From Chloroflexota bacterium (GTDB lineage: Bacteria; Chloroflexota; Limnocylindria; P2-11E), in assembly GCA_005889275.1 (NCBI GenBank), contig VBFI01000044.1, forward strand, positions 22,509-86,508: a stretch of DNA of 64,000 bases, in the 5' to 3' direction. The translations under genes were made by a program, and so were the position numbers. Below the pieces are notes generated by a model. The model saw only the letters and a program-made list of their open reading frames with translations. It was not told the origin of the DNA and made no database searches. This document shows positions 17,611 through 60,311 of this stretch, piece after piece (within the stretch, counting starts at the first letter, position 1; the number at the start of each line of letters is the position of its first letter).

Positions 17611-18126
17611 GTGCCGCTCTACGGCTACCGCGGGAAAACGCCGAAGGTCGCGGCCGACGCGTTCATCGCTCCAACGGCGGTCCTGATCGGCGACGTGACC
17701 GTCGAGAGCGGCGCCTCCGTCTGGTTCGGCACGGTCCTCCGCGGCGACATGGATCGGATCGTGATCGGCGCGCGCTCCAACGTGCAGGACAACTCGACGA
17801 TCCACACGGACGAGGGCGAGCCCACGCTTGTCGGCCCAGATGTGACGATCGGCCACAACGCCCTCGTGCACTCGAGCGTCATCGCCCGGAACGTGCTCAT
17901 CGGGCAGGCCGCGGTCCTCGTGGGGGGCAACGTCATCGGCGAGGAGACGATCGTCGGCGCGGGCGCGGTGCTCCCCGAGAAGTTCTCGCCCCCCGCGCGA
18001 TCGCTCGTCCTCGGGGTGCCGGCGAAGGTCGTCCGCGAGACGCGGCCGGACGACGCCCGCTGGACCGTGCGAGCCGCGGAGCACTACACCGACCTCGGGC
18101 GCTGGTACCGCGAGAACTTGCGATAG
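17611..18126 (+). CDS. gamma-carbonic anhydrase family (hexapeptide-repeat, PaaY/CaiE/YrdA-like) protein
   Basis: MPLYGYRGKTPKVAADAFIAPTAVLIGDVTVESGASVWFGTVLRGD...TIHTDEG...IGHNALVHS. GTG 17611 lies 12 nt from the divergent aroG start. Confidence 0.85.
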   Translation: MPLYGYRGKTPKVAADAFIAPTAVLIGDVTVESGASVWFGTVLRGDMDRIVIGARSNVQDNSTIHTDEGEPTLVGPDVTIGHNALVHSSVIARNVLIGQAAVLVGGNVIGEETIVGAGAVLPEKFSPPARSLVLGVPAKVVRETRPDDARWTVRAAEHYTDLGRWYRENLR

Positions 18127-18257
18127 CGACCCTCCGGCTCACCGGCCACGACCTTTCGATCGCCGACGTCGTCGCGGTCGCGCGCGAGGACATCGCGGTC
18201 GGTCTCGACCGCGCCGCGGAGCGCTCGGTCCAACAGGCGGCCAAGGTCGTCTCGCAG

Positions 18258-19490
18258 ATGGCCGGCGGGGACGAGCCGGTGTACGGCGTGAACACCGGGT
18301 TCGGCGACCTTTCCACCGTGCGGATCCCGCACGACGAGCTCCGCGCGCTTCAACGCAACCTCGTCCGCAGCCACGCCGTCGGCGTCGGCCCGGGCGACCT
18401 CGCGCCGCTCGCGCACGCCGCGCTCGTGCTTATCGGCGAAGGCGAGACCATCGAGGGGACGAAGCGGCGCGCCGGCGGAGAGGCTCTCCGTGCCGCGGGC
18501 CTCAAGCCCCTCGAGCTCGCGCCGAAGGAGGGTGTGTCGCTCATCAACGGCACGCAGGTGATGACCGCCATCGGGTGCCTGGCGCTCCACGACGCGGAGG
18601 TCCTCGCGACGACGGCCGACGTCGTCGGCGCGATGTCCGCCGAGGCCCTGCGCGGGACCGACCGCGCGTGGGACGAGGAGCTGCACGCGAGCCGGCCGCA
18701 TCCCGGACAGCAGACCGTCGCCGGCAACCTGCGCGCGCTCATGGCCGGCAGCCCGAACGTCGCCTCGCACCGCGTCGGAGACCCGCGCGTCCAGGACCCG
18801 TACTCGGTGCGCTGCATGCCGCAGGTGCATGGCGCGACGCGCGACGCGCTCGGCTACACCCGGCGCGTCCTCGAGGTCGAGATCAACGCGATCACCGACA
18901 ACCCGATCGTGTTCGCGGAAGACCACCGGATCGTGAGCGGCGGCAACTTCCACGGGCAGCCGGTCGCCATCGCCCTCGACCTCGCGACGATCGCCGTGGC
19001 CGAGCTCGCCGACATCAGCGAGGCGCGGATCGATCGCATGACGAACGGCCACACGAGCGGGCTGCCGGCTTTCCTCTCGCCATCGCCGGGCACGAACTCA
19101 GGCTTCATGGTCGCGCAGTACACGGCGGCGGCCCTCGTCACCGAGAACCGGATGCGCTCGTTCCCCGCGTCGGTCGAGTCGCTGCCGACGTCGGCCGGCA
19201 TGGAGGACCATGTGAGCATGGGCGTCCACGCCGCGCACAAGCTCGCCGAGGTCGTCCGCAACACCCGCGACGTGCTCGCGATCGAGGCGCTCTGCGCAAC
19301 GCAGGGCCTCGACCTCCTCGAGACGACGACGGCGCCGGCCGTCGAGGAGGCGCGCCGGGTGGTTCGCGAGCGCTCAGGGCGGCTCGAGGCCGACCGCTCC
19401 CTCGCCGGCGACATCGCGAACATGTCGGACGCGATCGCGCGTGAGGTGTTCATCGCCGCCGTGCGCGTGCGCCTCCCGGAGCTCGCCTGA
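18258..19490 (+). CDS. hutH: histidine/aromatic ammonia-lyase family protein (HutH-like), lacking the MIO-forming Ala-Ser-Gly segment; possibly non-functional
   Basis: Strong HAL homology: YGVNTGFG, LQRNLVRSHA, GDLAPLAHAALVLIGEG, NGTQ, DPYS.RC.PQV, SGGNFHG. However, AVGVGP is joined directly to GDLAPL, so about 47 residues including the ASG triad are missing in frame. Conserved N-terminal homology continues upstream to about 18123 with no ATG/GTG/TTG. Confidence 0.6.
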   Translation: MAGGDEPVYGVNTGFGDLSTVRIPHDELRALQRNLVRSHAVGVGPGDLAPLAHAALVLIGEGETIEGTKRRAGGEALRAAGLKPLELAPKEGVSLINGTQVMTAIGCLALHDAEVLATTADVVGAMSAEALRGTDRAWDEELHASRPHPGQQTVAGNLRALMAGSPNVASHRVGDPRVQDPYSVRCMPQVHGATRDALGYTRRVLEVEINAITDNPIVFAEDHRIVSGGNFHGQPVAIALDLATIAVAELADISEARIDRMTNGHTSGLPAFLSPSPGTNSGFMVAQYTAAALVTENRMRSFPASVESLPTSAGMEDHVSMGVHAAHKLAEVVRNTRDVLAIEALCATQGLDLLETTTAPAVEEARRVVRERSGRLEADRSLAGDIANMSDAIAREVFIAAVRVRLPELA

Positions 19491-26324: not shown

Positions 26325-27995
26325 TCAGCTCCCCCGACGATGGATCACCCGGCCGCCCAGGATCGTCATGTCGACCTCCGTCGAGGCGATGTCTCGGGCG
26401 CCCAGCGGCAGGATGTCGCGCGAGAGGACCACGAGGTCGGCGAGCTTGCCCAGGGCGATGCTTCCCCTTTGGTCCTCCTCGTACGACGCGTACGCCGGAT
26501 TGATCGTGTACGCGGCGATGGCCTCCTCGACCGTGAGCGCCTCTTCGGGATGCCATGCACGCTCGACCGCGAGCGCGATGTTCTGCAGTGGCGCGAGCGG
26601 GGTGGCGCGCTGCTCGTTGAAGCTCCCGGGCCAGTCCGACACCAGGTCGAGCCGCGCGCCGGCGTCGCGGAGCGAGCGCCAGGCGTGCGCGGTCTTCGCG
26701 CGCTCCGGTCCCAGGCGCCGCTCGACCGTCCGCATGTCGTTCACGAGGTGCTGCGGGGTGACGTCGACGATGAGCCCGAGCTTCCCGATGCGCTCGATCT
26801 CGCGAGCGCTCGGGTACCAGGCGTGGATCACGCGGAAGCGGCGGTCACGCGGCGGATTGGCGCGGATCGCGGCCTCGTACCAGTCGAGAAGGAGCCGGTG
26901 CGCCTTGTCGCCGATGGTGTGCACGACCGGATCGAAGCCGGCGGCGTCCGCGCCCGCGATGTCCGCGGCCATCGTCTCCTCGTCGACGAAACGGAAGGTG
27001 AACGAACCGGCGTAGTCGGGCTCATTCGCGTACGGGGCGTCCATGAGGAATCCATCGATGAACGCCTTGAGGCCGCCGAAGCGGATGCGGCCCTCGTCCG
27101 TCCGCGGGCGAACGCCACATGCGAGCACGTCTCGCCACACCGCGAGCGTCAGGAACGCGTAGACACGCATCGTGAGCCGGCCCCGCCGCTGCAGCTCGCG
27201 GAAGAGCGCGAGGTCGGTCGCGCTCCGTTCGACGTCGGTGTGGAACAGGTGCCGTCGCGAAACCTCGTCGAGCCGGGTCACGTCGTGGATCCCGGTGATC
27301 CCCGCGCGGCGCAGCTCCTCGAGCGCCGACTCCGCCCCCGCGACCATGAGCTCGAGATTCGCCGGCGGCATGAGCTCGGCCATCCGCTCCCCCGCACGCC
27401 CGAGGAGGATGCCAGTCGGCATACCGTCGGCATCGCGCCGGATCTCGCCGCCCCGAGGGTCAGGTGCGCGCCGGTCGAGACGGGCGCGGGCGAGCGCGAG
27501 CGAGTTCGCGACGTAGGCGCCGTCGACGCGGCGCAGCAGGATCGGGTGATCGGGGGCCACGGCATCGAGGCGCCGTCGGTCGATCGGCATCGGCGCGGGC
27601 CGTGGCGCCCCTTTCTCGTCGGCGGCCCACGCCGCGGCGGCATCGAGATCGCCGCCCGTGAGCCACAGGCCTTTCGGTACCCGACGCGCCGACGTCGCGA
27701 TCTTCTCGAGCACCGCGTCGGCGTCGCGCTCCTCGTAGAGGCCGACGCGGAAGGTCCAAGCCGCGGCGTTGCCGAAGTGCGTGTGCGCGTCGATGAACCC
27801 GGGAAGCGCCAGGCGGCCGGCCAGCTCGACGACCTCGGTCCGCGGTCCGGCGAGGGGCCGGAGATCCTCGTCGGTACCCACGGCGACGATGCGCTCGCCG
27901 CGGACCGCCACCGCCCGCGCCTCGGGCCGTCGTGGGTCGACGGTCCATACGCGGCCTCCGCGCAGGATGAGGTCGGCCGGTTCGGCCGTGCTCAG
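26325..27995 (-). CDS. amidohydrolase-family (Amidohydro_3, metal-dependent TIM-barrel) hydrolase
   Basis: PGFIDAHTHF, HTIGDKA and C-terminal ALGKLADLVVL motifs. The conserved N-terminus (AEPADLILRGGRVWTVDP) extends upstream of the first GTG (27911). The likely start is CTG 27995, overlapping the upstream stop (CTGA). Confidence 0.75.
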   Translation of the reverse strand: MSTAEPADLILRGGRVWTVDPRRPEARAVAVRGERIVAVGTDEDLRPLAGPRTEVVELAGRLALPGFIDAHTHFGNAAAWTFRVGLYEERDADAVLEKIATSARRVPKGLWLTGGDLDAAAAWAADEKGAPRPAPMPIDRRRLDAVAPDHPILLRRVDGAYVANSLALARARLDRRAPDPRGGEIRRDADGMPTGILLGRAGERMAELMPPANLELMVAGAESALEELRRAGITGIHDVTRLDEVSRRHLFHTDVERSATDLALFRELQRRGRLTMRVYAFLTLAVWRDVLACGVRPRTDEGRIRFGGLKAFIDGFLMDAPYANEPDYAGSFTFRFVDEETMAADIAGADAAGFDPVVHTIGDKAHRLLLDWYEAAIRANPPRDRRFRVIHAWYPSAREIERIGKLGLIVDVTPQHLVNDMRTVERRLGPERAKTAHAWRSLRDAGARLDLVSDWPGSFNEQRATPLAPLQNIALAVERAWHPEEALTVEEAIAAYTINPAYASYEEDQRGSIALGKLADLVVLSRDILPLGARDIASTEVDMTILGGRVIHRRGS

Positions 27996-28222
27996 CCGGC
28001 GCGGCGCCGCGCGTTGCGGCCGGCGCGATAGAGGTTCGCGAGCACGAGCGCCAGCACGAGCGCGAGCAGCACCCAGCCGGCGTTCTCGCTCAGGACGTCG
28101 GTGCCCGAGTGCGCGATGACCCAGGTGAGCGCGAGCGCCAGGATCGCTCCGATCGCGAGCTGCCCGTCGTCGACGAGGAGCCCGTAGGTGTTGTCCCAGA
28201 TCGCGCGGAAGACGCTAGACAT
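27992..28222 (-). CDS. small two-TM membrane protein (76 aa)
   Basis: MSSVFRAIWDNTYGLLVDDGQLAIGAILALALTWVIAH...AGWVLLALVLALVLANLY is low in Arg and hydrophobic. It overlaps the upstream membrane gene by 8 nt. Confidence 0.55.
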   Translation of the reverse strand: MSSVFRAIWDNTYGLLVDDGQLAIGAILALALTWVIAHSGTDVLSENAGWVLLALVLALVLANLYRAGRNARRRAG

Positions 28223-28982
28223 TCCGCGCCTCCACCCGCGCGCCCTGCGGGAGCAGGCCGCCCAGCATGCGGACCGCGATCCAGCTCGCGAGGAGGAACG
28301 ACCCGAGGATCACCGGGATCGAGGCCGCGTCACCGGGCCATGCCGCGCCGACGCCCTCACCGAACCAGAAGATCCCGAAGCTCGAGAGCATCGCGCCGAC
28401 GCCGAACTTCATCCAGTTCTCGGGCACCGCGGTCAGGGGCGCGCGGAGCGCCGAGGCGAGCGCGATGACGATGATCCCCGCGGCGATCGCGCCCAGGATC
28501 GCGGCGTTCATCGCGCCGACGCCTTTCGCGCCGAACGCGATGACGATGAACGCGACCTCGGTCCCTTCGAGGAGGACCGCCTTGTAGGCCACGATCATCC
28601 CGATCCAGTCCCAGCGGTTTCGGCGAAGCCCCTGCGCCCTGAGCTCAGCGACCTCGCGGCGGTAGATCTCCTCCTCGTCGTGGACGGCGACGATCCCGGC
28701 GAAACGGAGGACGGCCTTGCGGAGCCAGCGCAGACCGAAGAGGAGAAGGAGCGTCCCGACGATGCCGAGGAGGAGGTGCTCCGGGACGACCGTGACGAGC
28801 GCCACCCCGAGGGTCGCGACGATGAGCGCGAGCGTGAGCGTGGCGAGCGCGGTGCCGACGAGCGGCGCGCGCCAGCCCCTGGTGATGCCCACCGCGAGCA
28901 CGATCGTCGTCGCCTCGACGAACTCGACCGCGCTCGCCAGGAACGACGGGGTCGCGGCGATCGCGACCGTCGCAAGGTCCAT
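28215..28982 (-). CDS. polytopic membrane protein with an internal two-fold repeat (possible cation transporter)
   Basis: 255 aa and about 7 TM segments. Two repeat units begin AVEFVEATTIVLAVG and LLEGTEVAFIVIAFG. ATG 28982 lies immediately after the SBP stop (TAGATG). Confidence 0.6.
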   Translation of the reverse strand: MDLATVAIAATPSFLASAVEFVEATTIVLAVGITRGWRAPLVGTALATLTLALIVATLGVALVTVVPEHLLLGIVGTLLLLFGLRWLRKAVLRFAGIVAVHDEEEIYRREVAELRAQGLRRNRWDWIGMIVAYKAVLLEGTEVAFIVIAFGAKGVGAMNAAILGAIAAGIIVIALASALRAPLTAVPENWMKFGVGAMLSSFGIFWFGEGVGAAWPGDAASIPVILGSFLLASWIAVRMLGGLLPQGARVEARNV

Positions 28983-30623
28983 CTAACCCTCCACCCAGGC
29001 GTCGTTCATGGCCGTGCCGGTGAGACCGTCCGGTCCGGGTTTGAAGTCGTGCACCTTCGTCGCCATCGCTTCGACGCGGACTTGGCTCATGACCCCGACG
29101 AACGGCAGGATCTCCATGACCCGCTTCTGCGCATCGACGTACGTTTGCTTGCGCTCCGGCGTGTTCAGATCCTGTCCCTGTCCCTTTACGAGGAGCGCAT
29201 CGAGCTGCGGGTCGTTCGTGTTCGAGAAGTTGCTGCCCGAGACACGGTTCGCCGAGTGATAGCAGACCCGCAGGACGCCGTCCGGGTCGATGCTCGTCGA
29301 CGACGTCGCCGCCATGTTGTGCTTGTACGCGCGGACGTAGTCGAGATACGGGCCGCGCTCCATCACCTGGACCTTGAGATCGATCCCGACGTCGCGAAGC
29401 TGCGACTGCATCGCCTGTGCGATCTCGGTCCAGGGGCTGCGGAAGGTCGCGAGCGCGATCTCGAGATTCTGGCCGTTCTTCTGCCGGATCGGACCCGAGC
29501 CCTGCTTCCATCCGGCGTCGTCGAGGAGTTTCTTCGCCTTCGCCGGGTCGAACGTGAAGGTCTTCTCGATCGTGTCGTCGCGCGCCCAGACGCCTTCCGA
29601 GAGCGGACCGACCGACACGTGGTGGACGCCGAAGAAGATCTTTTCGACGATCGACTTCCGGTCGACGGCCCAGTTCGCCGCCTCGCGGACCGCGTGGTCG
29701 TCGGTCGGCGCCCGCGCGACGTTCATGCTGAACCCGAGCGTGTGGCTCGCGCGCGGCGACATCACGAACCGGAAGCGCTTGTCGTCCTTGAGCCGCGCGT
29801 AGTCCGCCTCGGGGATCTCGTCGATGAAGAGGTTCTCGCCGCTCTCGAGCGTCGCGACGCGCGTGGAGGGCTCGGTGATCGCGCGGAACTTCAGCTGGTC
29901 GAGGTACGGCGCGGCGCGGTTCTTGAAGAGCTCGTTCCCCCAGTTGTAGTCGGGGTAGGCCTTCAGCGTGACGACGCCGTCCGGCGACCTGCCCGCGAAC
30001 ATGAACGGGCCCGAGCCCACCGGCTCCGTCGCGACGTCGCCGGGCTTGAGCGTCGCGAGGTACTTCGGCGAGAGGACGCCGAAGAAGTACCGCCAGATCT
30101 GGAGCATGAACGCGGCATAGGGCTGCTTGAAGCTGAAGACGACCGTCTTGTCATCCGGTGTGGTGATCTTGTCGATCGGGCCGACCAGCGAAACGACGGC
30201 GCCCGCCTTCGTCTTCGGATCGAGGATCCGTTCGAACGAGCCTTTGACGGCCGCCGAGGTGAGCGCGCTGCCGTCGTGGAATTTCACCCCGTCTCGGAGC
30301 GTGAAGGTGAACGTCTTCGACGAGTCGGTGATCGTCCACTTCGCGGCAAGCGCCGGGTAGAACTTCTGGTCGCTGTCCATGGTGATGAGCGTGTCGAGGA
30401 TGTTCTGGGCGATCTCGCCGGCCGCGGCGCCGGTCGTGAGCGCGGGATCGATCACGTCGATCTTGTCCCACTGCCCCCAGGTGACCGTCCCGCCCTTCGT
30501 CGGCTTCAGCGACGCCGATGCGGTCGGCGCGGTGGCCGCCGGTGCGCACGCGAAGATCGCGACACTCGCCGCCGCAAGGGCCGAGCGCCGCAGGAACTCG
30601 CGACGGTACATCTGCTCGTTCAT
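28983..30623 (-). CDS. ABC-type substrate-binding protein, family 5 (DppA/OppA-like), Tat signal
   Basis: MNEQMYRREFLRRSALAAASVAIFA is a twin-arginine signal, followed by an SBP_bac_5 fold. ATG 30623 overlaps the aminotransferase stop (ATGA). GGGGGAG Shine-Dalgarno upstream. Confidence 0.85.
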   Translation of the reverse strand: MNEQMYRREFLRRSALAAASVAIFACAPAATAPTASASLKPTKGGTVTWGQWDKIDVIDPALTTGAAAGEIAQNILDTLITMDSDQKFYPALAAKWTITDSSKTFTFTLRDGVKFHDGSALTSAAVKGSFERILDPKTKAGAVVSLVGPIDKITTPDDKTVVFSFKQPYAAFMLQIWRYFFGVLSPKYLATLKPGDVATEPVGSGPFMFAGRSPDGVVTLKAYPDYNWGNELFKNRAAPYLDQLKFRAITEPSTRVATLESGENLFIDEIPEADYARLKDDKRFRFVMSPRASHTLGFSMNVARAPTDDHAVREAANWAVDRKSIVEKIFFGVHHVSVGPLSEGVWARDDTIEKTFTFDPAKAKKLLDDAGWKQGSGPIRQKNGQNLEIALATFRSPWTEIAQAMQSQLRDVGIDLKVQVMERGPYLDYVRAYKHNMAATSSTSIDPDGVLRVCYHSANRVSGSNFSNTNDPQLDALLVKGQGQDLNTPERKQTYVDAQKRVMEILPFVGVMSQVRVEAMATKVHDFKPGPDGLTGTAMNDAWVEG

Positions 30624-31981
30624 CGTGAGGCTCCCCCACCCGTGGTCGTGATCGCGAGCGACGCGTCGAGGATGTCCAGCCCTTCGTCGAGCTGCGCGTC
30701 CGAGATCGTGAGCGGCACGAGCGTGCGGATGACGTTCGAGTAGAGGCCTGCGCGCAGCAGGATCAGCCCGCGCTCGCAGGCCGTACGGATGGTCGCGTCT
30801 ACGGTTGCCGGGTCGGGCTTCTTCGTGGTGCGGTCGCGGACGAGCTCGATCGCGCGCATCGCGCCGAGCCCGCGGACGTCGCCGATCACCTCGTGCCGCG
30901 TCGCCATCTCGGCGAAGCGCTCGCCGATGACGCCGCCGATCCGCGACGCCCGCTCCAGCAGCCCGTCGCGCTCGATGATCTCGATCGTCTTGATCGCCGC
31001 GGCGCAGGCCACCGGGTGCCCGCCGAACGTGCTGCCGAGCGATCCGGGGCCGAGCGCGTCGAAGAGCTCGGCGCGGCCGGTGACCGCCCCGATGGGGAAA
31101 CCCGCGCCGAGCGACTTCGAGGTGATGAGAAGGTCGGGCGTCACGCCCGAGTGCTCGATCGCGAACATCTTGCCCGTGCGCCCCATGCCGGTCTGGATCT
31201 CGTCGGCGATGAAGAGGATGCCGTGGCGGCGGCAGATGGCCGCGATCCGCTTCAGGAATCGCGCCGGCGGGACGACGAACCCTCCCTCGCCCTGGACCGG
31301 CTCGACGATCACGGCGGCGACGTGCTCGGGCGCGAGGTTCGTCTCGAGGACCTGCTCGAACAGGCGCACGTGGAGCTCGCCGAGCTCATCGTCGCCGACC
31401 TCGGCGATCGGCCGGTAGGGATACGGGTAGGGCACGTGCGCGACGTTCGGGGTCGTGGAGCGCATGAACGCCATCCGCGAGCTCTTCGTCTTGCCGGTCG
31501 CGGTCATCGCCGTGTACGTGCGTCCGTGGAAGCTGTTCTGGAAGGCGATGACCCACTCGCGGCCGGTCGCGACGCGGGCGATCTTGATCGCGTTCTCGAC
31601 CGCTTCGGCGCCACTGTTCGCGAAGACGCTCTTCGTCGCGACCGCGGTGCCCCCGCTCTTCGGGTAGATCCGGTCGAGCTCCTGCGCGAGCCGCACGTAC
31701 GGCTCGTAGGTCACGACCTGCGCCGACACGTGCGCGTATCGCTCGAGCTGCTCGCGCACCGCTCCGATGACCTCGGGATGCTGATGCCCGAGGTTCAGCG
31801 CGCCGATGCCCGCGACGAAGTCGAGATAGCGGCGGCCCTCCGGGTCGAACAGCTCGGCGCCGGACGCCCTGGCCACGACGACCGGGGTCCCGACGTGCAG
31901 CCCCTTCGGGACGAATCGCTCCCGCAGCTCCCGGACCTCCGCCGTGCCGGATCCACTCCGAGTTTCGATGAGCGTGCTCAC
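30620..31981 (-). CDS. gabT: class-III PLP aminotransferase (4-aminobutyrate/omega-aminotransferase-like)
   Basis: FDPEGRRYLDF...NSGAEAVENAIKIAR...EPVQGEGGF...DEIQTGMGRTGKMFA...TSKSLGAGFP matches GabT. GTG 31981 overlaps the RpiR stop (GTGA). Confidence 0.85.
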   Translation of the reverse strand: MSTLIETRSGSGTAEVRELRERFVPKGLHVGTPVVVARASGAELFDPEGRRYLDFVAGIGALNLGHQHPEVIGAVREQLERYAHVSAQVVTYEPYVRLAQELDRIYPKSGGTAVATKSVFANSGAEAVENAIKIARVATGREWVIAFQNSFHGRTYTAMTATGKTKSSRMAFMRSTTPNVAHVPYPYPYRPIAEVGDDELGELHVRLFEQVLETNLAPEHVAAVIVEPVQGEGGFVVPPARFLKRIAAICRRHGILFIADEIQTGMGRTGKMFAIEHSGVTPDLLITSKSLGAGFPIGAVTGRAELFDALGPGSLGSTFGGHPVACAAAIKTIEIIERDGLLERASRIGGVIGERFAEMATRHEVIGDVRGLGAMRAIELVRDRTTKKPDPATVDATIRTACERGLILLRAGLYSNVIRTLVPLTISDAQLDEGLDILDASLAITTTGGGASR

Positions 31982-32901
31982 GCCACTTCCCCTTTCGTCC
32001 GCTCGTCGATCCGAGCGCGCAATTCCTGAAGCTCCTCGGCGGCGGCCAGCGCGCCGGCGCGATCGCGACGGGCCAGCCCGAAGAGAAGCGCGTCCAGGAC
32101 GACGACCGTGATCGCCGACAGATGGAACATGCCGCCCCCCGCCCGGCGCGCCGAGAGCGCCACCGTGAACTGGCCCGCGAGCGCGAGACCGAGCGTGTCG
32201 GTGATGAGGAGCGAAGGAAGCGCGAGCTCCCGGGCACGCTCCAGCGTGAGCTCCGCCTCGGGGCTCGAGCGGTCGTAGGCCAGGACGACGACGACGTCGC
32301 CGCGGCGCATGTCGATGAGCACGTCCGCGAGCGCCTGGCCGCGCGCACCGACGGAGAGCGCCGAGCGCCGCATGCGCCGGAGCCGGGCCGCGAAGTATTC
32401 GGCGAGCGGCGCGTTCGGGCCGAGTCCCTGCACGACGACTCGCTGCGCGCCGGCCATGAGCTCGAGCGCTCGCGCGAAATCGGTCGCCCGGAGGGTCTCG
32501 CGCGCGTCATGGAGCAGCTGCAGCTCGGTGGCGAGGACGTGCTCCAGCACCGCGGCTGGATCATCGCCCAGGTCCTCAAGGCTGCGGCCCAGGCGGAGCG
32601 TCGGCGTGGCCCGGGTGCGCAGCGCCTCACGCAGCTCGGCCTTGAGCGCGGGCAGTCCGGTGTAGCCGAGCGACTGCGCCGCGCGGATGACCGTCGCATC
32701 GCTCATGTCCAGCCGCGCGGCGATCTCGACCGCCGAGAGGAACATGACCTCCTCGCGATGCTGCGCGAAGAAGGTGGCGACGCGATCCTCGGCCGGACTG
32801 AGGCTCGCGCGCGCCGCGGCGATCCGCTCCTCGAGCGATGGCTCGGCGACCTCCGCCCGGCGGGCATGCCCGTGGCCCTGCGCGGCCTCAGTAGCGTTCA
32901 C
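31978..32901 (-). CDS. RpiR/MurR-family transcriptional regulator (HTH_6 plus SIS domain)
   Basis: LSPAEDRVATFFAQH...VEIAARLDMSDATVIRAAQSLGYTG is the HTH. The SIS region is QRVVVQGLGPNAPLAEYFAARL. GTG 32901. The upstream part of the tracked 702-aa ORF is junk. Confidence 0.75.
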   Translation of the reverse strand: MNATEAAQGHGHARRAEVAEPSLEERIAAARASLSPAEDRVATFFAQHREEVMFLSAVEIAARLDMSDATVIRAAQSLGYTGLPALKAELREALRTRATPTLRLGRSLEDLGDDPAAVLEHVLATELQLLHDARETLRATDFARALELMAGAQRVVVQGLGPNAPLAEYFAARLRRMRRSALSVGARGQALADVLIDMRRGDVVVVLAYDRSSPEAELTLERARELALPSLLITDTLGLALAGQFTVALSARRAGGGMFHLSAITVVVLDALLFGLARRDRAGALAAAEELQELRARIDERTKGEVA

Positions 32902-32964
32902 TTCAGCACCGAGTGCAGACTGTAGTGTATGCTGCGAGACGATTTCAACTGGGGCGGTGAGGCG

Positions 32965-34119
32965 ATGGCAGCAGCGGAGCTCACCACGATCGAGATCAGC
33001 GGCTCGCGCGGTGAGCTGGGTCGGCAGCATGGCGAGGCCGCCCGGAGCCAGATCGGCGAGTCGATCGGCTACTACCGCGAGTCGTTCAAACGCATCACCG
33101 GCCTGGAATGGGCCGAGATCCGCCGGAACGCCCCGCGCTGGGTGCAGCCCATCGACGCGTACCTGCCGGGGATCACCGACGAGATCCGCGGTATCGCCGA
33201 AGGCGCGGGCGTCGACTTCGCCGAGATCCTCGCGCTCAACGCGCGCGGCGAGCTGTCGACGCACAACCCCTTCGCCGAAGCGGCCGAGGAGGGCTGCTCC
33301 TCGTACGCGATCTTGCCCGAGGCCTCCGGCGACGGACACGTGTACTGCGGCCAGAACTGGGACTGGCGCTGCGAGACCTTCGGGACGGTGATCCTCCTGC
33401 GCATCGTTCAGCCGGGCCGGCCGACCATCATCATGCAGACAGAAGCCGGTCAGGTCGGGCGTCACGGCGCGAACTCGGCGGGCATCGCGCTCAACGCGAA
33501 CGGCCTCGGTGCCCGCTGGGGCAAGGGCATCGGCGTTCCCCAGCCGATCATCCGCCGCAGGATCCTGGAGGCGCCGGAGATGCAGACCGCGCTCCGCGCC
33601 GTCTTCGACTCCCGCCAGTCGCTCTCCACGAACCTCCTGGTGACCCACCGCGACGGCTTCGCCATCGATCTCGAGACGACGCCTGACCGCCATGGCTGGA
33701 TGTACCCGACGGCCGGCCTCCTCGTGCATACCAATCACTTCATCGCGTTCGTGCCCGAGCAGATCGCGGCGACCTATCGGCCCTTCTCGGTGAATTCGCT
33801 CTGGCGCCTTCCCCGGCTCACCGAGGGGCTGCGCGCGGCGAAGAGGCCCGGCGACAGCGCGGAGGTCCGTGGCGCGATCGGGGCCGCCCTCCGCGATCAC
33901 TTCGGCTATCCGAACTCGGTCTGCAAGCACGGCGACGAGGCATCTCAGGGGACGGACCTCAATCAGACGATCGCCTCGAGCATCGTCGATCTCACGACCG
34001 GCGAGTATTGGCTGGCGGCGGGGAATCCGTGCGAGGGCGAATATCGGAAGCTGCCCTGGAACATCTACGACGAAGCGGGAGCGCATCCGCGACAGGTGGC
34101 CACTGCCGGTCGGGCGTGA
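32965..34119 (+). CDS. peptidase C45 / acyl-CoA:6-aminopenicillanic-acid acyltransferase-family Ntn-hydrolase
   Basis: The autoproteolytic Gly-Cys site is EEGCSSYAIL...CGQNWDW. ATG 32965 with GGTGAGG Shine-Dalgarno. Divergent from the RpiR gene. Confidence 0.7.
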   Translation: MAAAELTTIEISGSRGELGRQHGEAARSQIGESIGYYRESFKRITGLEWAEIRRNAPRWVQPIDAYLPGITDEIRGIAEGAGVDFAEILALNARGELSTHNPFAEAAEEGCSSYAILPEASGDGHVYCGQNWDWRCETFGTVILLRIVQPGRPTIIMQTEAGQVGRHGANSAGIALNANGLGARWGKGIGVPQPIIRRRILEAPEMQTALRAVFDSRQSLSTNLLVTHRDGFAIDLETTPDRHGWMYPTAGLLVHTNHFIAFVPEQIAATYRPFSVNSLWRLPRLTEGLRAAKRPGDSAEVRGAIGAALRDHFGYPNSVCKHGDEASQGTDLNQTIASSIVDLTTGEYWLAAGNPCEGEYRKLPWNIYDEAGAHPRQVATAGRA

Positions 34120-35072
34120 TGCGCGAAGCGACGCTCCGCGTCTACTCGGGACGCAACCGTCCGGACCTGACGCCCATATACCGGCTTTTCGAGCGCCTCA
34201 CGGACACGAGGGTCGAGGTGGAGATGATCTACCACCTCGACGTCGAGCGACGACTCGCCGAGGAGCGCCACGATCCGATCGCGGACGTGCTCGTCACGAA
34301 CAGCCAGGTCGCGGTCGAGGCGGTCCGCGGATCGGGACTCTTCGAGCCGTACGCGCCGGAGGTCGCGCGCGGGTTCGACGAATGGCTCCGCGCGCCCGAC
34401 CACTCATGGCTCTCGTTCGCGGCGTGGCCGCGGACCGCGATGATCAATCGCCGCCTTCTTCCCGACCCCGCGAGCTGGCCACGGACGCTCGAGGAGCTCG
34501 CGGCCGAGCGCTTTCGCGGGAAGATCTCGATGGCAACGACGAACGAGGAGACGACGGTCTCGCAGTGGAGCGCGATCCGCGCCGCCAGAGGCGACGACTT
34601 CGCCTGGCACCTTCTGGACCGGCTCCGCGCGAACGGCCTCCGCACCTACGGATCGAACAAGGCGACGCGGGAAGCGCTCGTGCGCGAGGGAAACGCGATC
34701 GCCCTCGTGAACTCGTCGAACTACCACGTGTTCCTAATGGAGGGGAACCCCGTCGGCGAGGCCTGGCTCGATCAGGAGCCCGGAGGGCTCGGAACGCACG
34801 TCGAGGCGCACGTGGTCGCCGTGGTGAAGGGCGCCCGTCACGTTGAGGCCGCGCGGTCCTTCGTCGATTTCCTGCTCTCGGCCGATACGCAGACCCTCCT
34901 CGCGCGGATGTTCGGCGAGACGCCGGTGAACCCCGCGGCGATCACCGGATCGGTCCGGCCGCTCGCGCAGATCAGACGCACCGCGGTCGCCCTCGCGAAG
35001 ATCACTGAGCTCCGGGACAGCACGCGCGCGCAGCTGGCCAAGCGGGGCTTCGCCCCACCGGCCGGCGACTAG
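34119..35072 (+). CDS. SBP-fold protein (Fe3+/thiamine-type periplasmic-binding-protein family) without a signal peptide
   Basis: MREATLRVYSGRNRPDLTPIYRLFERLT...VLVTNSQVAVEAV is an SBP_bac_1/8-like fold. No N-terminal hydrophobic signal is present. ATG 34119 overlaps the C45 stop. Confidence 0.65.
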   Translation: MREATLRVYSGRNRPDLTPIYRLFERLTDTRVEVEMIYHLDVERRLAEERHDPIADVLVTNSQVAVEAVRGSGLFEPYAPEVARGFDEWLRAPDHSWLSFAAWPRTAMINRRLLPDPASWPRTLEELAAERFRGKISMATTNEETTVSQWSAIRAARGDDFAWHLLDRLRANGLRTYGSNKATREALVREGNAIALVNSSNYHVFLMEGNPVGEAWLDQEPGGLGTHVEAHVVAVVKGARHVEAARSFVDFLLSADTQTLLARMFGETPVNPAAITGSVRPLAQIRRTAVALAKITELRDSTRAQLAKRGFAPPAGD

Positions 35073-35080
35073 GACGGACC

Positions 35081-36343
35081 GTGCTCGACTGGCTCAGCGT
35101 CGACGGCAAGAAGCTTCTCGCGACGCGGGTCCTGCGGACATTCGCGTACGGCTACCTCGCGGTGGTCCTCGGTCTCTTCCTCGACAAGCTCGGGATGTCC
35201 CCGATCGAGATCGGCCTCGTCTTCACCGCGGCTATCGCCGGCTCTGCGGTGATGACGGTCTTCTGGTCGCTCATCGCCGACCGTTACGGACGGCGGCGCA
35301 CCGTCGCGACCATGGCGGTGCTCATGGCGATCGGCGGTCTCATCTTCGCGGGGACGAGCAGCTTCTGGCTCCTCCTCGTCGGCGCGTTCACCGGGACGAT
35401 CAGCGCGACGAGCTCCGAGGTCGGCGTGTTCCAGACCGTCGAGCAGGCCGTGCTCCCGCAGACCGCGCCGAACGAGCGCCGCACCTGGCTCTTCTCGATC
35501 TACAACATGGCGGCGAACTTCGCGGGCGCGTTCGGCTCGCTCGCGGCGGCCTCGGTCGGATTCTTCGCGGCCCACGGTCTCGCGGGCGCCGATGCGTATC
35601 GCCCGCTTTTCGTCTTGTACGCGCTCATCGGCCTCGCCAACCTCGCGATCTTCCTTACGCTTTCGGACCGGGTCGAGCTCGCGCACGTCGAGGGGCAGCG
35701 CCGCTTCCTCGGTGTCCACCGCTCCGCCGGGACCGTCGCGAAGCTCTCGGCGCTCTTCGGGCTCGACGCGTTCGCCGGTGGCTTCGTCGTCCAGTCGGTC
35801 GTCGCGTACTGGTTCTACCTGCGCTGGGGACTCGATCCCGCGGCGCTCGCCGGGATCTTCTTCTGGGTCGGGATCCTGTCGGGGTTGTCGCTCCTCGCCG
35901 CGGGCTGGCTCGCCGAGCGCATCGGTCTCCTCAACACGATGGTGTTCACCCACCTCCCGTCGCAGTTCGCACTCCTGCTCATCCCTCTCGCGCCGACGGC
36001 GGGGCTCGCGGTGGCGCTCTACCTGGCGCGCATGAGCGTCTCTCAGATGGACGTGCCGACCCGGCAGTCCTACACGATGGCGGTGGTCGACCCCGACGAG
36101 CGCACCGCCACCGCGGGCATCACGAACGTTGCCCGGACGAGCGCCACCGCGATCGCGCCGACGTTCGCGGGCATGGCCTTCAGCGCGGCGGCCCTCGGTC
36201 TTCCGTTCTTCATCTCGGCTGCGCTCAAGATCGTGTACGACGTCGCCATCTACGCGACCTTCCGGAACGTGCATCCTCCCGAGGAGCGTGCCCGCCGCGA
36301 ATCGCGGCAGGTCCCGCCGACGCCGGAGACGACCGCGACGTGA
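35081..36343 (+). CDS. MFS transporter
   Basis: 420 aa, 12 TM helices, with IADRYGRRRTV between TM2 and TM3. GTG 35081 with AGGA upstream. Confidence 0.85.
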   Translation: MLDWLSVDGKKLLATRVLRTFAYGYLAVVLGLFLDKLGMSPIEIGLVFTAAIAGSAVMTVFWSLIADRYGRRRTVATMAVLMAIGGLIFAGTSSFWLLLVGAFTGTISATSSEVGVFQTVEQAVLPQTAPNERRTWLFSIYNMAANFAGAFGSLAAASVGFFAAHGLAGADAYRPLFVLYALIGLANLAIFLTLSDRVELAHVEGQRRFLGVHRSAGTVAKLSALFGLDAFAGGFVVQSVVAYWFYLRWGLDPAALAGIFFWVGILSGLSLLAAGWLAERIGLLNTMVFTHLPSQFALLLIPLAPTAGLAVALYLARMSVSQMDVPTRQSYTMAVVDPDERTATAGITNVARTSATAIAPTFAGMAFSAAALGLPFFISAALKIVYDVAIYATFRNVHPPEERARRESRQVPPTPETTAT

Positions 36344-36384: not shown

Positions 36385-37329
36385 GTGGCCAGGTACGTCG
36401 CGCAAAGGCTCGCCGAGGCGGTCCCGGTCCTGCTGCTCGCGTCCGTCCTCGTCTTCTCGATCCTGCATCTGGTTCCCGGCGATCCGATCGACGCCATGAT
36501 CGGCGCCGCATCGTTCGGCGTGGGCGATCGGACCGCCCAGGAGCAGCTCGTCGCGCAGCTCCGCGAGCAGCTCGGCCTGAACGATCCGCTGCCGCTTCAG
36601 TACCTGCGCTGGCTGTGGAACGCGACGCATCTCGACCTCGGCGAGTCGTTCATCCGCCACCAGCCGGTGATGAAGCTCATCGGCGACCGGCTCCCGAGCA
36701 CGGTCGAGCTGGCGGGCGCGGCCCTCGTGCTGTCGGTGAGTCTCGGCGTCGTGCTCGGCCTCCTCGCCGCGGTGAAGCGCAACTCGCCGATCGATCGCCT
36801 GGTCATGCTCTTCTCGCTCGGCGGCGTCTCGATCCCGAGCTTCTTCTTCGCGATCCTGTTGATCCTGCTGTTCTCGGTCACGCTCGGCCTCGTTCCCGCG
36901 ACCGGCTCGGGCAGCCTCGACCGGCTCATCCTTCCGGCCCTCGTCCTCGGCTACGAGGGCACGGGCCTCATCGCGCGGCTCACGCGCGCGTCGCTCCTCG
37001 ACGTGCTCGGGCGCGAGTACGTGCGGACGGCGCACGCGAAGGGGCTCGCGCCGCGCAGCGTGCTTCTCGGTCACGCGATGCGCAACGCGCTCATCCCAGT
37101 GGTGACGATCGTCGGTCTCCAGCTCGGCCGCCTCCTCGCCGGCAGCGTGATCGTCGAGACGATCTTCGCGCGGCAGGGGATCGGGCAGCTCGCGATCGAC
37201 TCGATCATCGCGAAGGACTACCCGGTGGTACAGGGCGTGATCCTGCTCACCGCGACGACCTACGTGATCGCCAATCTTCTCGTCGACGTGTCGTATGGCT
37301 TCATCAACCCCAGGATCCGCGCCGCCTAG
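36385..37329 (+). CDS. dppB: ABC transporter permease (DppB/OppB-like)
   Basis: MARYVAQRLAEAVPVLLLASVLVFSILHLVPGDPIDAM...EYVRTAHAKGL...AMRNALIPVVT. GTG 36385 with GAGAGGGGA upstream. Confidence 0.85.
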   Translation: MARYVAQRLAEAVPVLLLASVLVFSILHLVPGDPIDAMIGAASFGVGDRTAQEQLVAQLREQLGLNDPLPLQYLRWLWNATHLDLGESFIRHQPVMKLIGDRLPSTVELAGAALVLSVSLGVVLGLLAAVKRNSPIDRLVMLFSLGGVSIPSFFFAILLILLFSVTLGLVPATGSGSLDRLILPALVLGYEGTGLIARLTRASLLDVLGREYVRTAHAKGLAPRSVLLGHAMRNALIPVVTIVGLQLGRLLAGSVIVETIFARQGIGQLAIDSIIAKDYPVVQGVILLTATTYVIANLLVDVSYGFINPRIRAA

Positions 37330-37346
37330 CGTCGGCCGTCCTGCCC

Positions 37347-38093
37347 GTGGCCATCGCCATCGACCCGTTCAAGCAGAGCCTCAAGGATTCGCTGCTCGCG
37401 CCCGGCACGCAGGGTCATCCGCTCGGCACGGACCAGTTCGGCCGCGACGTCTTGCTCCGGCTCATCGACGGCGGGCGCGCGTCGCTCTCGATCGGCTTCG
37501 CCGCCGTCGCGATCGCGATGGTGTCGGGAGGCCTCGTGGGGCTCGTCGCCGGGATGCGCGGCGGCTGGGTCGATCGGGCACTCATGCGGCTGGTCGACGT
37601 GGAGCTCGCGTTCCCCGGGATCCTCCTCGCGCTCATCATCGTGACCATCCTCGGCCCCGGCCTCGAGAAGGTCGCGATCGCCGTCGGGGTCGGCGGCATG
37701 CCGCGGTTCGCGCGCATCGTCCGCGGCTCGGTCCTCTCGACAAAGCACGAGCTGTTCATCGAGGCGGCGCGGAGCGTCGGGGCGAGCGAGCGGCGTGTCG
37801 CGTTTGCGCACGTCATGCCGCAGGTGCTCGGGCCGGTCATCACCATCGCGACGTTCGGACTCGCCACGGCGATCTTCTCGATCGCGGCGCTGTCGTTCCT
37901 CGGGCTGGGCGCGCAGCCCCCCGCCGCGGAGTGGGGCCTCATGCTGTCCGACGCGCGCCGCTACCTGCGGATCGCGTGGTGGCTCGCCGTGTTCCCTGGG
38001 ATCACCGTCACCTCGGTCGTGCTCGCCGCGAATCTCCTCGGCGACGCGGTACGCGACGCGCTGGATCCCCGTCTCTTCAGCAAGGCGGACTGA
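37347..38093 (+). CDS. dppC: ABC transporter permease (DppC/OppC-like), N-terminally truncated (TM1 absent)
   Basis: ...IAIDPFKQSLKDSLLAPGTQGHPLGTDQFGRDVL...EAARSVGASE. The first in-frame start after the dppB stop is GTG 37347. The upstream frame has no TM1. No ATPase genes follow. Confidence 0.6.
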   Translation: MAIAIDPFKQSLKDSLLAPGTQGHPLGTDQFGRDVLLRLIDGGRASLSIGFAAVAIAMVSGGLVGLVAGMRGGWVDRALMRLVDVELAFPGILLALIIVTILGPGLEKVAIAVGVGGMPRFARIVRGSVLSTKHELFIEAARSVGASERRVAFAHVMPQVLGPVITIATFGLATAIFSIAALSFLGLGAQPPAAEWGLMLSDARRYLRIAWWLAVFPGITVTSVVLAANLLGDAVRDALDPRLFSKAD

Positions 38094-38129
38094 GCTCCGC
38101 ACGGTCAGCGGAGCGCCGTCGGCTTTCGG

Positions 38130-38384
38130 CTACCGTCCGAGCGCGCGGCGGGCGGCCTGGGCCGAGCTCATGCGTTTGCTCTTACCCGGCGCGAGGGCCA
38201 CTCGGCGATGAACGTTGGACACCGCGTCACGCGGCAGATCGTGAATGAACGCGGCGGTGTTGTCCTTGAACAGCGGGATCTCGGGGACACGCTCCCAGCG
38301 CATGACCGCCGCGGCGAGATCCTTGGCCAGCGCCTTTCGGTTCTTGAACGTTCCTTCGGTGGCGTACACGTCGATCATCGGCAT
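38130..38384 (-). CDS. tautomerase-family protein (4-oxalocrotonate tautomerase-like, Pro1)
   Basis: MPMIDVYATEGTFKNRKALAKDLAAAVMRWERVPE. ATG 38384 makes Pro the catalytic residue 2. AGGAG lies 6 nt upstream. The tracked start at 38420 is too far upstream. Confidence 0.65.
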   Translation of the reverse strand: MPMIDVYATEGTFKNRKALAKDLAAAVMRWERVPEIPLFKDNTAAFIHDLPRDAVSNVHRRVALAPGKSKRMSSAQAARRALGR

Positions 38385-38475: not shown

Positions 38476-39054
38476 ATGGGCAAGGAGAGCCGGGCCAGCA
38501 TGGTGCGGAGCGCCGCGTCGCTGATCCGTACCCGCGGCGTGAGCGCGACGTCGTTCTCGGACGTGCTGGCGGACAGTGGAGCGCCGCGCGGATCGATCTA
38601 CCACCACTTTCCGGATGGAAAGGCGCAGCTCGCCGCGGACGCGATCCGCTGGACGTCGGACCGGGTGCTCGCACACCAACGCGAGTGCCCCGCGACCACG
38701 GCGGCAGGGGTGCTGAACTGCTTCATCGACATGTGGCGGCAGGTCGTGGTGTCCTCGCGCGGCACCGCCGGATGCGTCGTGGCGGGCGTCGCGATCGACA
38801 CGGTCGCCGGCGACAAGGCCTTGATCGACGTCGTCCGCGCGACGTTCCGGTCCTGGGTCGACTTGCTGGCCAAGCAGCTCGCGGCCGTCGGTGTCCCACG
38901 TGAGCGAGCACGGGCCATCGCGGTCGCGACGGTGGCCGGCATGGAGGGCGCGCTCATCCTGTGCCGCGCCGAAGGTCGGAGCCGGCCGCTCGAAACCGTG
39001 GCTGCCGAGCTCATGCGTTTGCTCCCGCCCGACGCGAGGGCCACTCGGCGATGA
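38476..39054 (+). CDS. TetR/AcrR-family transcriptional regulator
   Basis: [44 protein letters not shown] is the TetR_N HTH. ATG 38476 with AAGGGGG upstream. The tracked start at 38443 overlaps the operator. Confidence 0.8.
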
Positions 39055-39233
39055 TCTCCGCGCTCGTCGGACCCGCGCTCCCCGATGGTCGCACGGCTCG
39101 GGGCGAGGGCGAGCCACGCGCGCGACGATCGACGGCGCGCGAATGGGCCTCCTGGATCCACGGGGCCGAGTTCGTCGGTGCAGACGTTCCTCGACCGGCA
39201 CGACCTCGGCGGGCCGGGTGGACAATCCCCCTC

Positions 39234-40883
39234 GTGAGCATCGCGACCCGCGTCGTCCGCGCCCCGCGAGGGGCGGCGCTGGAGTGCCGGGCCTGGCCGC
39301 AGGAGGCCGCGTTCCGCATGATCCAGAACAATCTCGACCCCGAGGTCGCCGAGAAACCGGATGAGCTCATCGTCTACGGCGGCACCGGGCGCGCGGCGCG
39401 CTCGTGGCAGGCGTTCGACCGGATCCTCGAGACGCTCCGGCGCCTGCGGAACGACGAGACGCTGCTCGTCCAGTCGGGAAAGCCCGTCGGCGTCTTCCGC
39501 ACGCACGAGTGGGCGCCGCGCGTGCTCATCGCGAACGCCCTCATCGTCCCGCGATGGGCGACATGGGACGAGTTCCGCCGTCTCGAGGACGCCGGTCTGA
39601 CGATGTACGGGCAGATGACCGCGGGGTCGTGGATCTACATCGGCACGCAAGGGATCCTCCAGGGCACCTACGAGACTTTCGCGGCGATCGCGCGGCGCCA
39701 TTTCGCGGGGACGCTCGCCGGCAAGCTCGCGCTCACGGCGGGACTCGGCGGGATGGGCGGCGCGCAGCCGATGGCGATCACCATGAACGAGGGCACCGCG
39801 CTCGTCGTCGAGGTCGATCCGCTGCGCGCGCGGCGCCGGCTCGCGCAGGGGTTCCTGGACGAGATCGTGACCTCGCTCGACGACGCGCTCGAACGTGCGG
39901 AGCGGTATCGGACCGAACGGCGAGCGCGTTCGGTCGGCCTCGTGGCGAACGCCGCGGACGTCCTTCCCGAGATCGTTCGCCGAGGCACGCGCATCGACGT
40001 GGTGACCGATCAGACGAGCGCGCACGATCCCCTCGACGGCTACGTCCCCGCGGGCGTCGCCGATCCCGCCGCGCTGCGCGAGCGCGACCCGGAAGAGTAC
40101 GTGCGACGCTCCCGTGCCTCGATCGCGCGTCACTGCGAGGCGATCGTCGCGCTCGCGCGCCGCGGTGCGGTCGCGGTCGATTACGGGAACAACCTCCGCG
40201 GTGAGGCGAAGGAGGCCGGTTTCGCCGACGCGTTCAGCTATCCCGGCTTCGTGCCCGAGTACATCCGGCCGCTCTTCGCCGAAGGCCGCGGGCCGTTCCG
40301 CTGGGTCGCGCTCTCCGGTGACCCCGAGGACATCCGCCGCACCGACCGGCTCGTGCTCGAGCTCTTTCCCGAAGACTTGACCCTGTCCCGGTGGATCCGC
40401 CTCGCCGGCGAGCGGGTCCCGTTTCAGGGACTCCCCGCGCGGGTCTGCTGGCTCGGATACGGCGAGCGCGCCGAGTTCGGCGAGCGGATCGACGAGCTCG
40501 TCGCGAGCGGCGAGCTCACGGCCCCGATCGTCATCGGACGCGACCATCTCGACTCCGGGTCGGTCGCGTCGCCATTCCGTGAGACCGAGAACATGCGCGA
40601 CGGGAGCGACGCGATCGCCGACTGGCCGATCCTGAACGCGCTCGTGAACACGGCGGCGGGCGCGACGTGGGTGTCGGTCCATCACGGCGGCGGCGTCGGG
40701 ATCGGCAACTCGATCCACGCGGGTATGGTCGCGGTCGCCGACGGCACGCCGCTCGGACGCGAAAAGCTCCGGCGCGTGCTCACGACCGATCCGGGCACCG
40801 GAGTCATGCGGCACGCCGACGCGGGGTATCCGGACGCGATCGACTTCGCGCGGAAGAACGGGATCGACCTGCCCAGCACCTAG
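39234..40883 (+). CDS. hutU: urocanate hydratase
   Basis: [32 protein letters not shown]...[12 protein letters not shown]...[17 protein letters not shown]...GNNLR...[12 protein letters not shown]...VMRHADAGY is near-complete HutU homology. GTG 39234, 549 aa. Confidence 0.9.
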
Positions 40884-60296: not shown

Positions 60297-60311
60297 GGCG
60301 CCGCCTAGCGC

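Follow-up and report, generated by a model that had tools for sequence, protein, structure and literature searches.

The stretch analysed here, a 64-kb window of contig VBFI01000044.1 from a Chloroflexota bacterium, carries on its minus strand a six-gene operon (26325-32901) in which the gene for a family-5 (Dpp/Opp/Nik-type) solute-binding protein (SBP), SBP_bac_5 (hereafter SBP5), is followed directly by genes for two small membrane proteins of 255 and 76 amino acids (aa). An earlier note on this DNA had proposed that these two proteins form an SBP-dependent secondary transporter or, failing that, that the SBP serves a distant ATP-binding cassette (ABC) system. Our analysis did not uphold the first proposal, as the SBP adjoins the two membrane proteins in few other genomes and Dpp-type permeases encoded 3.5 kb away co-vary with it. 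The second is essentially the one we favour, except that the permeases are encoded nearby and it is for the ATPases alone that no gene was found in the window. We consider it probable, with some reserve, that SBP5 serves a DppBC-type ABC importer and that the 255-aa and 76-aa proteins (the pair) constitute an independent transporter that is merely co-transcribed with it. Overall, this is most likely a catabolic operon of an ordinary sort into which a transporter already resident at the locus was drawn.

This reading draws in the first place on the genes that accompany the pair in other genomes. The pair was surveyed at species level in the best 80 of at least 582 matching genome loci, using a profile from an 11-sequence alignment, and the neighbouring genes in most loci were called by a home-made open reading frame (ORF) picker. 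SBP5 stood beside the pair in 4 of the 80 loci (L008, L009, L011 and L015), all of them from the closest Limnocylindria relatives of the window. The same four loci also have an aminotransferase and an RpiR-family regulator beside the pair, as the operon does, and the amidohydrolase is present in the three whose contigs extend far enough.

The candidate permease genes for SBP5 lie on the other strand, 3.5 kb from the operon, at the end of a divergent arm of five plus-strand genes. These encode a C45-family autoproteolytic acyltransferase/hydrolase (32929..34119, the start perhaps being a Met 12 codons downstream), an SBP_bac_6/11-fold protein (SBP6; 34119..35072), an MFS_1 transporter of the major facilitator superfamily (MFS; 35081..36343), an intact DppB-type ABC permease with the domains BPD_transp_1_N (PF19300) and BPD_transp_1 (PF00528) (dppB; 36385..37329) and a DppC-type ABC permease that is 5'-deleted in the window (dppC; 37338..38093). 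Six relatives from other metagenomes (L001-L006) also have all eleven genes of this divergent cluster, dppB among them, and their DppC is full-length. SBP5, the aminotransferase, RpiR, the C45 enzyme, SBP6 and dppB occurred together in nine loci, namely these six and L008, L009 and L011; dppC was seen in L001-L006 only, as the other three loci end within dppB.

Two further Limnocylindria species (L010 and L012) gave no match to SBP5, the aminotransferase, RpiR, the C45 enzyme, SBP6, dppB, dppC or the amidohydrolase, either at tblastn E<=1e-6 or, separately, at E<=1e-15 with >=45% identity and >=50% coverage. Both retain the 255-aa and 76-aa genes, and L012 retains the MFS gene too. Their locus can be regarded as orthologous to that of the window because the same hut and adenine-glycosylase genes flank the bare pair there: urocanase and adenine glycosylase in both species, and hutH in L012 as well, against a hutH-like aromatic lyase, urocanase and adenine glycosylase in the window (18123-19490, 38961-40883). 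By this comparison of gene content, the Dpp permeases come and go with SBP5 while the pair stays. The simplest reading would be that the pair is an ancestral resident and that one Limnocylindria clade built up the catabolic gene set on either side of it; alternatively, the pair may have escaped block-wise losses of those genes. Under either history, the pair would function without the SBP. Between-species identity is also highest in the cluster for the pair (85-92%), with values of 66-92% for the other cluster proteins.

The two membrane proteins, in turn, appear to belong to each other. The 76-aa protein (27992-28222, minus strand), the small subunit with two transmembrane (TM) helices, matched no family in Pfam or NCBIfam. 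It carries the motif YGLLVDDGQLA ahead of its TM helices, and relatives of about 330 aa end in a fused C-terminal module composed of a G-L-(F/L)-V-D-D-x-x-L-A motif and TM helices. A homologous ORF of 60-85 aa immediately follows the 255-like gene in 77 of the 80 loci, mostly with overlaps of 4 or 8 nucleotides (nt), and is fused to it in the other three; the 80 loci come from at least five phyla, with Chloroflexota, Actinomycetota, Pseudomonadota, Acidobacteriota, Bacillota and Dormiibacterota named among them. When 5144 control ORFs from the same loci were searched, the sole matches to the 76-aa protein were these downstream ORFs themselves, in versions extended at the start, and independent gene calls reproduced the arrangement of a 255-like gene with a small ORF behind it. 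Judged by these sequence relationships, the 76-aa protein is a split-off C-terminal module and an obligate 2-TM partner of the 255-aa protein, and the pair is an ancient, widespread and self-contained unit. Modelling of a natural fusion (P0490) gave the C-terminal module a confidence (pLDDT) of only ~60-67, so that no packing was deduced from it, and a MAFFT alignment that misplaced the 76-aa sequences against the fused proteins was not used. The top profile matches (P0391-P0394; 327-369 aa) have exact internal duplications of ~60-100 residues and look like metagenome assembly artefacts; P0391-P0393 were excluded from the fusion evidence, and P0394, which has a fused GLFIDD module, was kept as a row of the alignment for modelling P0490.

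Profile searches and a topology check, both proposed in the earlier note, gave the 255-aa protein (28215-28982, minus strand), the large subunit, a family and seven TM helices. It scored 41.7 bits against Pfam PF16955 (OFeT_1), for which the gathering cutoff is 26.9, and nearly all of its listed homologues have a precomputed match to this family. Hydropathy and an AF2 model (pLDDT 86.6) gave a 3+3+1 topology, and the two-fold internal repeat that had been noticed earlier was borne out by an hhalign comparison of the N-terminal with the C-terminal half of the family alignment (97.5% probability, E 7e-12, 83 columns). Glutamates E20/E23 (VEFVE, TM1) and E139/E142 (LEGTE, TM4) are invariant or nearly so, and TM3 contains FGLRWL, which fits the TMS3 motif FGX(K/R)XL. 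None of the solved structures resembles the AF2 model.

R-E-x-x-E motifs in TM1 and TM4 are the hallmark of FTR1 and EfeU. With the iron/lead transporter (ILT)/OFeT group to which these belong (FTR1, EfeU, FtrC, PbrT; TC 2.A.108), the 255-aa protein shares the OFeT_1 match, the 3+3+1 topology, the 3-TM repeat, ExxE in TM1 and TM4 and an FGX(K/R)XL-type motif in TM3. It differs from them in that its motifs, VExVE and LEGxE, have no preceding Arg and are not REXXE, in its obligate 2-TM C-terminal module, separate or fused, which is described in neither Pfam nor NCBIfam, and in that the usual partners (EfeO/EfeB, P19, cupredoxin and multicopper oxidase) were not seen nearby. The ILT family lies within the LysE superfamily, has a 3+3+1 topology and has the FGX(K/R)XL motif in common with CaCA2 (PMC4608589). 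In the GDT1/UPF0016 (CaCA2, TMEM165) cation/proton antiporters, a unit of three TM helices is likewise present twice, and TM1 and TM4 each begin with an acidic motif; some relatives of the 255-aa protein score weakly on PF01169 (P0490 below threshold, at 20.4 bits against 27), and some members carry this label at JGI. However, their E-x-G-D-(K/R)-(S/T) motif is absent, the 255-aa protein having E-F-V-E-A-T and E-G-T-E-V-A, and the pair has a seventh TM helix and a 2-TM subunit. On profile match, topology and internal repeat, the 255-aa protein is best placed as a member of the ILT/LysE superfamily (PF16955, COG4280).

Some hint of function comes from the regulators found beside the pair. A stand-alone ChrB_N (PF20229) was its commonest neighbour, in 14 of the 80 loci and three phyla, often in the same operon and often with a 4-nt overlap with the start of the pair (L089 4354-5959; L019, L025, L026, L032, L037, L038, L051, L054, L057, L058, L062, L063, L085, L086). 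This suggests that ChrB_N and the pair form a conserved regulator-transporter module. ChrB is a chromate-responsive regulator (PMC3817168), and the Arthrobacter chromate determinant contains split ChrB-N genes (PMC2751784). Loci such as L089, with a stand-alone ChrB_N beside the pair and often in its operon, resemble the ChrB chromate determinants of Ochrobactrum TnOtChr and Arthrobacter FB24 (the latter with split ChrB-N/ChrB-C) (PMC3817168, PMC2751784), but have no ChrA/CHR transporter; the window itself contains no ChrB_N gene, and the functional hint applies to other lineages only. Regulators of the RpiR family (HTH_6 and SIS) stand divergently beside the pair in Ralstonia, two alphaproteobacterial metagenome-assembled genomes (MAGs) and an Acidimicrobiia MAG (L027 7049-7879; L050 7226-7912; L073 7008-7892; L082 3464-4474), and no SBP5 or aminotransferase homologue was detected at these four loci. 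PF16955/COG4280 proteins in general appear to be two-subunit (or fused) transporters, repeatedly under ChrB_N or RpiR regulators, and this account is more likely than one in which the pair is fed by SBP5.

The remaining neighbours of the pair were heterogeneous and included MFS transporters, unrelated ABC systems and two-component systems. A cluster of 'ABC ATPase' neighbours (9 loci) was rejected as a specific association, as unrelated Rbs-type, FbpB-type and ABC-2 systems had been joined by generic ATPase similarity. It was also observed that the pair often lies directly beside, and usually downstream of, unrelated transporter genes, among them a ribose-type ABC system, a fused FbpB-type permease-ATPase, an ABC-2 exporter and MFS transporters (L055 23-4795; L087 4947-8756; L077 6127-8783; L012, L013, L016, L083).

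SBP5 itself (28983-30623, minus strand; PF00496, 288.8 bits) begins with MNEQMYRREFLRRSALAAASVAIFAC, in which an RREFLRR twin-arginine motif, a hydrophobic stretch and then a possible lipobox Cys were read by eye, without a signal predictor; to that extent the twin-arginine translocation (Tat)-like signal reported earlier stands. The nearest solved structures are 5u4o, HbpA, AgaA, GsiB, DppA and NikA, and the ligands of the nearest solved SBPs are glutathione, agropinic acid, dipeptides or nickel chelates. Permeases with Dpp/Opp-specific N-terminal domains pair with family-5 SBPs (the PepT/Dpp/Opp family), and SBP5 is the sole family-5 SBP within the divergent cluster; we infer that DppB and DppC are its cognate permeases. 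As in the Dpp/Opp/Nik (PepT) ABC importers, a family-5 (cluster C) SBP with an export signal is co-inherited with permeases of the DppB (PF19300) and DppC (OppC_N) types. Unlike in those importers, the SBP and the permeases are encoded on opposite strands in separate operons, no DppD/DppF ATPase gene is present at the locus or at the window's second Dpp locus, and the dppC of the window is 5'-deleted. The earlier statement that there is no ABC permease or ATPase was correct within 26325-32901 and, as regards the ATPase, among the window genes scanned, but not for the locus, which has dppB and the 5'-deleted dppC at 36385-38093.

Several of our findings weigh against pairing SBP5 with DppBC and treating the membrane proteins as an independent cation transporter. 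The window dppC is without 158 nt, comprising the start codon and TM1, at the dppB/dppC junction (37329-37338). No ABC ATPase (PF00005) was found among the predicted genes of the 64-kb window scanned against Pfam, and no ATPase gene adjoins dppC in the relatives L001-L006, so that a complete ABC importer is lacking at the locus. In every clade member the pair is embedded without intergenic space between SBP5 and the amidohydrolase (TAGATG and CTGA in the window), as one would expect for functionally linked genes. RpiR regulators adjoin the pair in four unrelated lineages; their link with it may thus be older than assumed and no mere coincidence of this operon, and it fits a pure metal role poorly. 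Lastly, a literature search found no paper on the PF16955/COG4280 family and no experimentally characterized member, and for this reason the term cation transporter is founded on superfamily membership and motifs.

The first of these points is tempered by the relatives. The missing 158 nt are present in six near-identical contigs from other samples (L092-L097, 3946-4110), all with an identical DppB protein; by the collection's own gene calls, DppC is full-length in L094 and L095 (318 aa, OppC_N PF12911 and BPD_transp_1), and dppC is intact in L001-L006 too. Because the near-identical contigs contain this segment, the deletion, which is bounded by short CGTC repeats, would be strain-specific or an assembly artefact and not a property of the lineage. 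An ORF at 37295-38248 was discarded as dppC, having no Pfam match and lying in the wrong frame; the correct frame was located by tblastn. As for the ATPases of DppBC, they may be encoded elsewhere in the genome.

A second Dpp-type set in the window (58555-61925, minus strand) consists of an SBP_bac_5 gene (60312-61925), dppB and dppC (58555-59472), followed by a gene for a CoA-binding protein. Its dppB is split in two frames (59469-60296 and 59426-59734), with ~49 nt apparently missing, and no ATPase gene was found in the set. This split gene, the 158-nt deletion in the first dppC and the want of an ATPase at both Dpp loci could all be taken as signs that the cluster is decaying and that SBP5 either survives as an orphaned remnant or has taken on a role other than transport, for instance in sensing. 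We regard such decay as improbable, given that the six operon genes and dppB are intact with a strong coding signal, that dppC is intact in L001-L006 and in L092-L097, including contigs from other samples with identical DppB, and that the deletion may itself be strain-specific or artefactual.

The dppC truncation and the failure to find an ATPase among the window genes scanned would also suit the earlier proposal that the ligand of SBP5 is passed on to the 255-aa and 76-aa proteins, making a new binding-protein-dependent secondary transporter with a logic like that of the tripartite ATP-independent periplasmic (TRAP) and tripartite tricarboxylate (TTT) transporters, as would the gene order SBP5 > 255 > 76 with its translational coupling. 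Among ILT-family permeases, EfeU, FTR1 and FtrC cooperate with extracytoplasmic proteins, and reliance on an outside partner would thus not be foreign to this superfamily, and the solved relatives of SBP5 include NikA and opine/metallophore-type binders. Set against this are the four loci out of 80, from one clade, in which the SBP adjoins the pair, the orthologous loci L010 and L012 that keep the pair without it, the co-variation of dppB/dppC with SBP5 and the intact dppC of near-identical strains. The likeness to TRAP and TTT systems extends only to gene order, with an SBP gene followed by genes for a larger and a smaller membrane protein: the operon SBP belongs to PF00496 and the membrane proteins to PF16955 and to no family, instead of DctP/TAXI/TctC, DctQ/DctM or TctB/TctA, and the SBP and membrane-protein genes do not co-occur across lineages. 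The window does hold a genuine system of this kind, a TRAP transporter of the TAXI type with an NMT1_3 SBP and a 686-aa fused DctQ/DctM (44371-47895, plus strand), 12 kb from the operon, and it looks quite different. We therefore judge delivery by SBP5 to the pair to be very unlikely, and give just as little credence to a clade-specific recruitment of the pair to accept the SBP5 ligand, maybe a metal-chelate or opine-like compound. If true, a LysE/ILT-superfamily permease would for the first time form the basis of a binding-protein-dependent transporter. The earlier note had allowed that its proposal would suffer if the membrane proteins proved to belong to a well-characterized unrelated family and not to be conserved beside SBPs, or if ABC partners were encoded nearby. 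To a large extent this is what we found, as PF16955 is a named family and is unconserved beside SBPs, though not experimentally characterized, and dppB and dppC lie within reach of the operon, though without an ATPase in the window.

A different possibility is that the pair is independent of the SBP in transport but has been recruited to the pathway, perhaps to provide the amidohydrolase with its metal cofactor, or to rid the cell of a pathway product that is toxic or charged. Exporters of metals and of amino acids both occur in the LysE superfamily (PMC4608589), and every clade member seen keeps the pair tightly embedded between SBP5 and the metal-dependent Amidohydro_3 gene. The one promoter-like site detected is that upstream of rpiR, with none inside the operon, and RpiR regulators adjoin the pair in four other lineages. 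However, sister species carry the same pair at this position but without these enzymes, and the genes beside it vary widely across phyla (ChrB_N, MFS, various ABC and two-component systems). Recruitment of this kind is possible and deserves to be kept in view, but we think it doubtful, and prefer to see the pair as an independent, co-transcribed transporter beside a DppBC-type importer.

The operon is otherwise as the earlier note described it. Six ORFs on the minus strand all show coding-type composition, with a G+C content at third codon positions (GC3) of 0.89-0.95 in a window of 70% G+C; the nearest relatives of the window proteins are from soil MAGs labelled Candidatus Limnocylindria/Chloroflexota. 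Pfam and NCBIfam matches support the identification of RpiR, the aminotransferase, SBP5 and the amidohydrolase, and the junctions are exact, reading in order GTGA, ATGA, TAGATG, ATGTCTAG (an 8-nt overlap) and CTGA. The first gene, with a GTG start, encodes the RpiR-family regulator (31978-32901, minus strand), with an N-terminal HTH_6 (PF01418, 47.1 bits) and a C-terminal SIS domain (PF01380, 40.1 bits); every NCBIfam equivalog scored far under its cutoff, and no specific orthologue can be named. The second encodes a class-III (GabT-like) aminotransferase (30620-31981, minus strand), which at 495.9 bits falls just under the cutoff of 506.65 for TIGR00700 GabT.

The last gene of the operon encodes an Amidohydro_3 (YtcJ-like) metal-dependent amidohydrolase (26325-27995, minus strand); its start codon is apparently a CTG, overlapping the TGA that ends the 76-aa gene. 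The first GTG in its frame is at 27911, with no ATG, GTG or TTG further upstream, and the sequence immediately behind the 76-aa stop codon (27911-27995) encodes the conserved first strand of the protein, ADLILRGGRVWTVDP. The CTG start, already given in the earlier note, is reasonable because this conserved strand precedes GTG 27911. Among the seven sequences compared (the window, L001, L005, L008, L009, L011 and L015), only L015 has a canonical start codon; the corresponding position holds CTG in the window and L008 and CTA in three loci (the equivalent region of L001 being 10988-11042), and in L009 the 76-aa and amidohydrolase ORFs share one frame with one TAG between them. This pattern suggests non-canonical initiation or termination-reinitiation.

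The two arms of the cluster meet in a short control region. A scan of 7.4 kb found one sigma-70-like site, against 0.3 expected, and none inside the operon; the site, TTGAAA-18 nt-TACAGT (32919..32948, minus strand), is located immediately ahead of rpiR and overlaps with a block of 18 nt, CGCAGCATACACTACAGT (32919-32936), that is invariant in the rpiR/C45 intergenic regions of six species (the window, L001, L005, L008, L009 and L011). This block takes in the -10-like TACAGT of the rpiR promoter as well as, on the other strand, the ATG of the C45 gene. The block is a candidate for a shared operator/promoter core. The mRNA leaders at this control region would be very short. Within the divergent arm, the SBP_bac_6/11-fold protein is weakly PhnS-like, starts MREATLRVYSG, has a 1-nt overlap with the C45 stop and precedes the MFS gene. 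No signal peptide was apparent from a by-eye look at its N-terminus, and it looks like a cytoplasmic protein with a binding-protein fold.

Taken together, the cluster would import and degrade a small compound that contains nitrogen and is either peptide-like or of the N-acyl/omega-amino-acid kind. SBP5, exported by the Tat route, would capture the substrate outside the cell and pass it to the DppB/DppC permease of the opposite arm, energized by ATPases encoded elsewhere. In the cytoplasm, the amidohydrolase, the C45 hydrolase or both would cut an amide bond and the GabT-like aminotransferase would take off the freed amino group, with RpiR acting on both arms through the conserved promoter region between them. 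The 7-TM and 2-TM proteins would move a small cation, possibly a metal, on their own. Neither the closest solved SBPs, nor the closest solved amidohydrolases, which are uncharacterized, nor the C45 enzyme pointed to one substrate, and our results speak neither for nor against the N-acylated or amino-sugar-like compound, sensed as a phospho-sugar, that the earlier note suggested. The flanking hut genes had brought a carnosine-like or omega-amino-acid dipeptide to mind, but this was dropped, as they are found beside the locus in operon-free species as well. In its make-up, the operon itself is of known kinds, combining Dpp-type uptake with amidohydrolase/transaminase catabolism under RpiR.

In summary, had the SBP-dependent reading held, it would have added a third architecture of binding-protein-dependent secondary transporters. 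Instead, this operon shows that tight packing can mislead, and that adjacency and overlapping stop and start codons do not prove a shared mechanism; on our reading, the catabolic gene set was assembled around a pre-existing transporter pair. Both Dpp sets of the window, and the relatives of the first, are without adjoining ATPase genes, which raises the question of shared ATPases in Limnocylindria. The uncharacterized membrane pair, and not the coupling to the SBP, is the part worth further study. The PF16955 family is not rare, with ~2,400 clusters at 50% identity matching the 255-aa protein at E <= 0.001, and its ChrB_N and RpiR regulators suggest substrates that can be tested.

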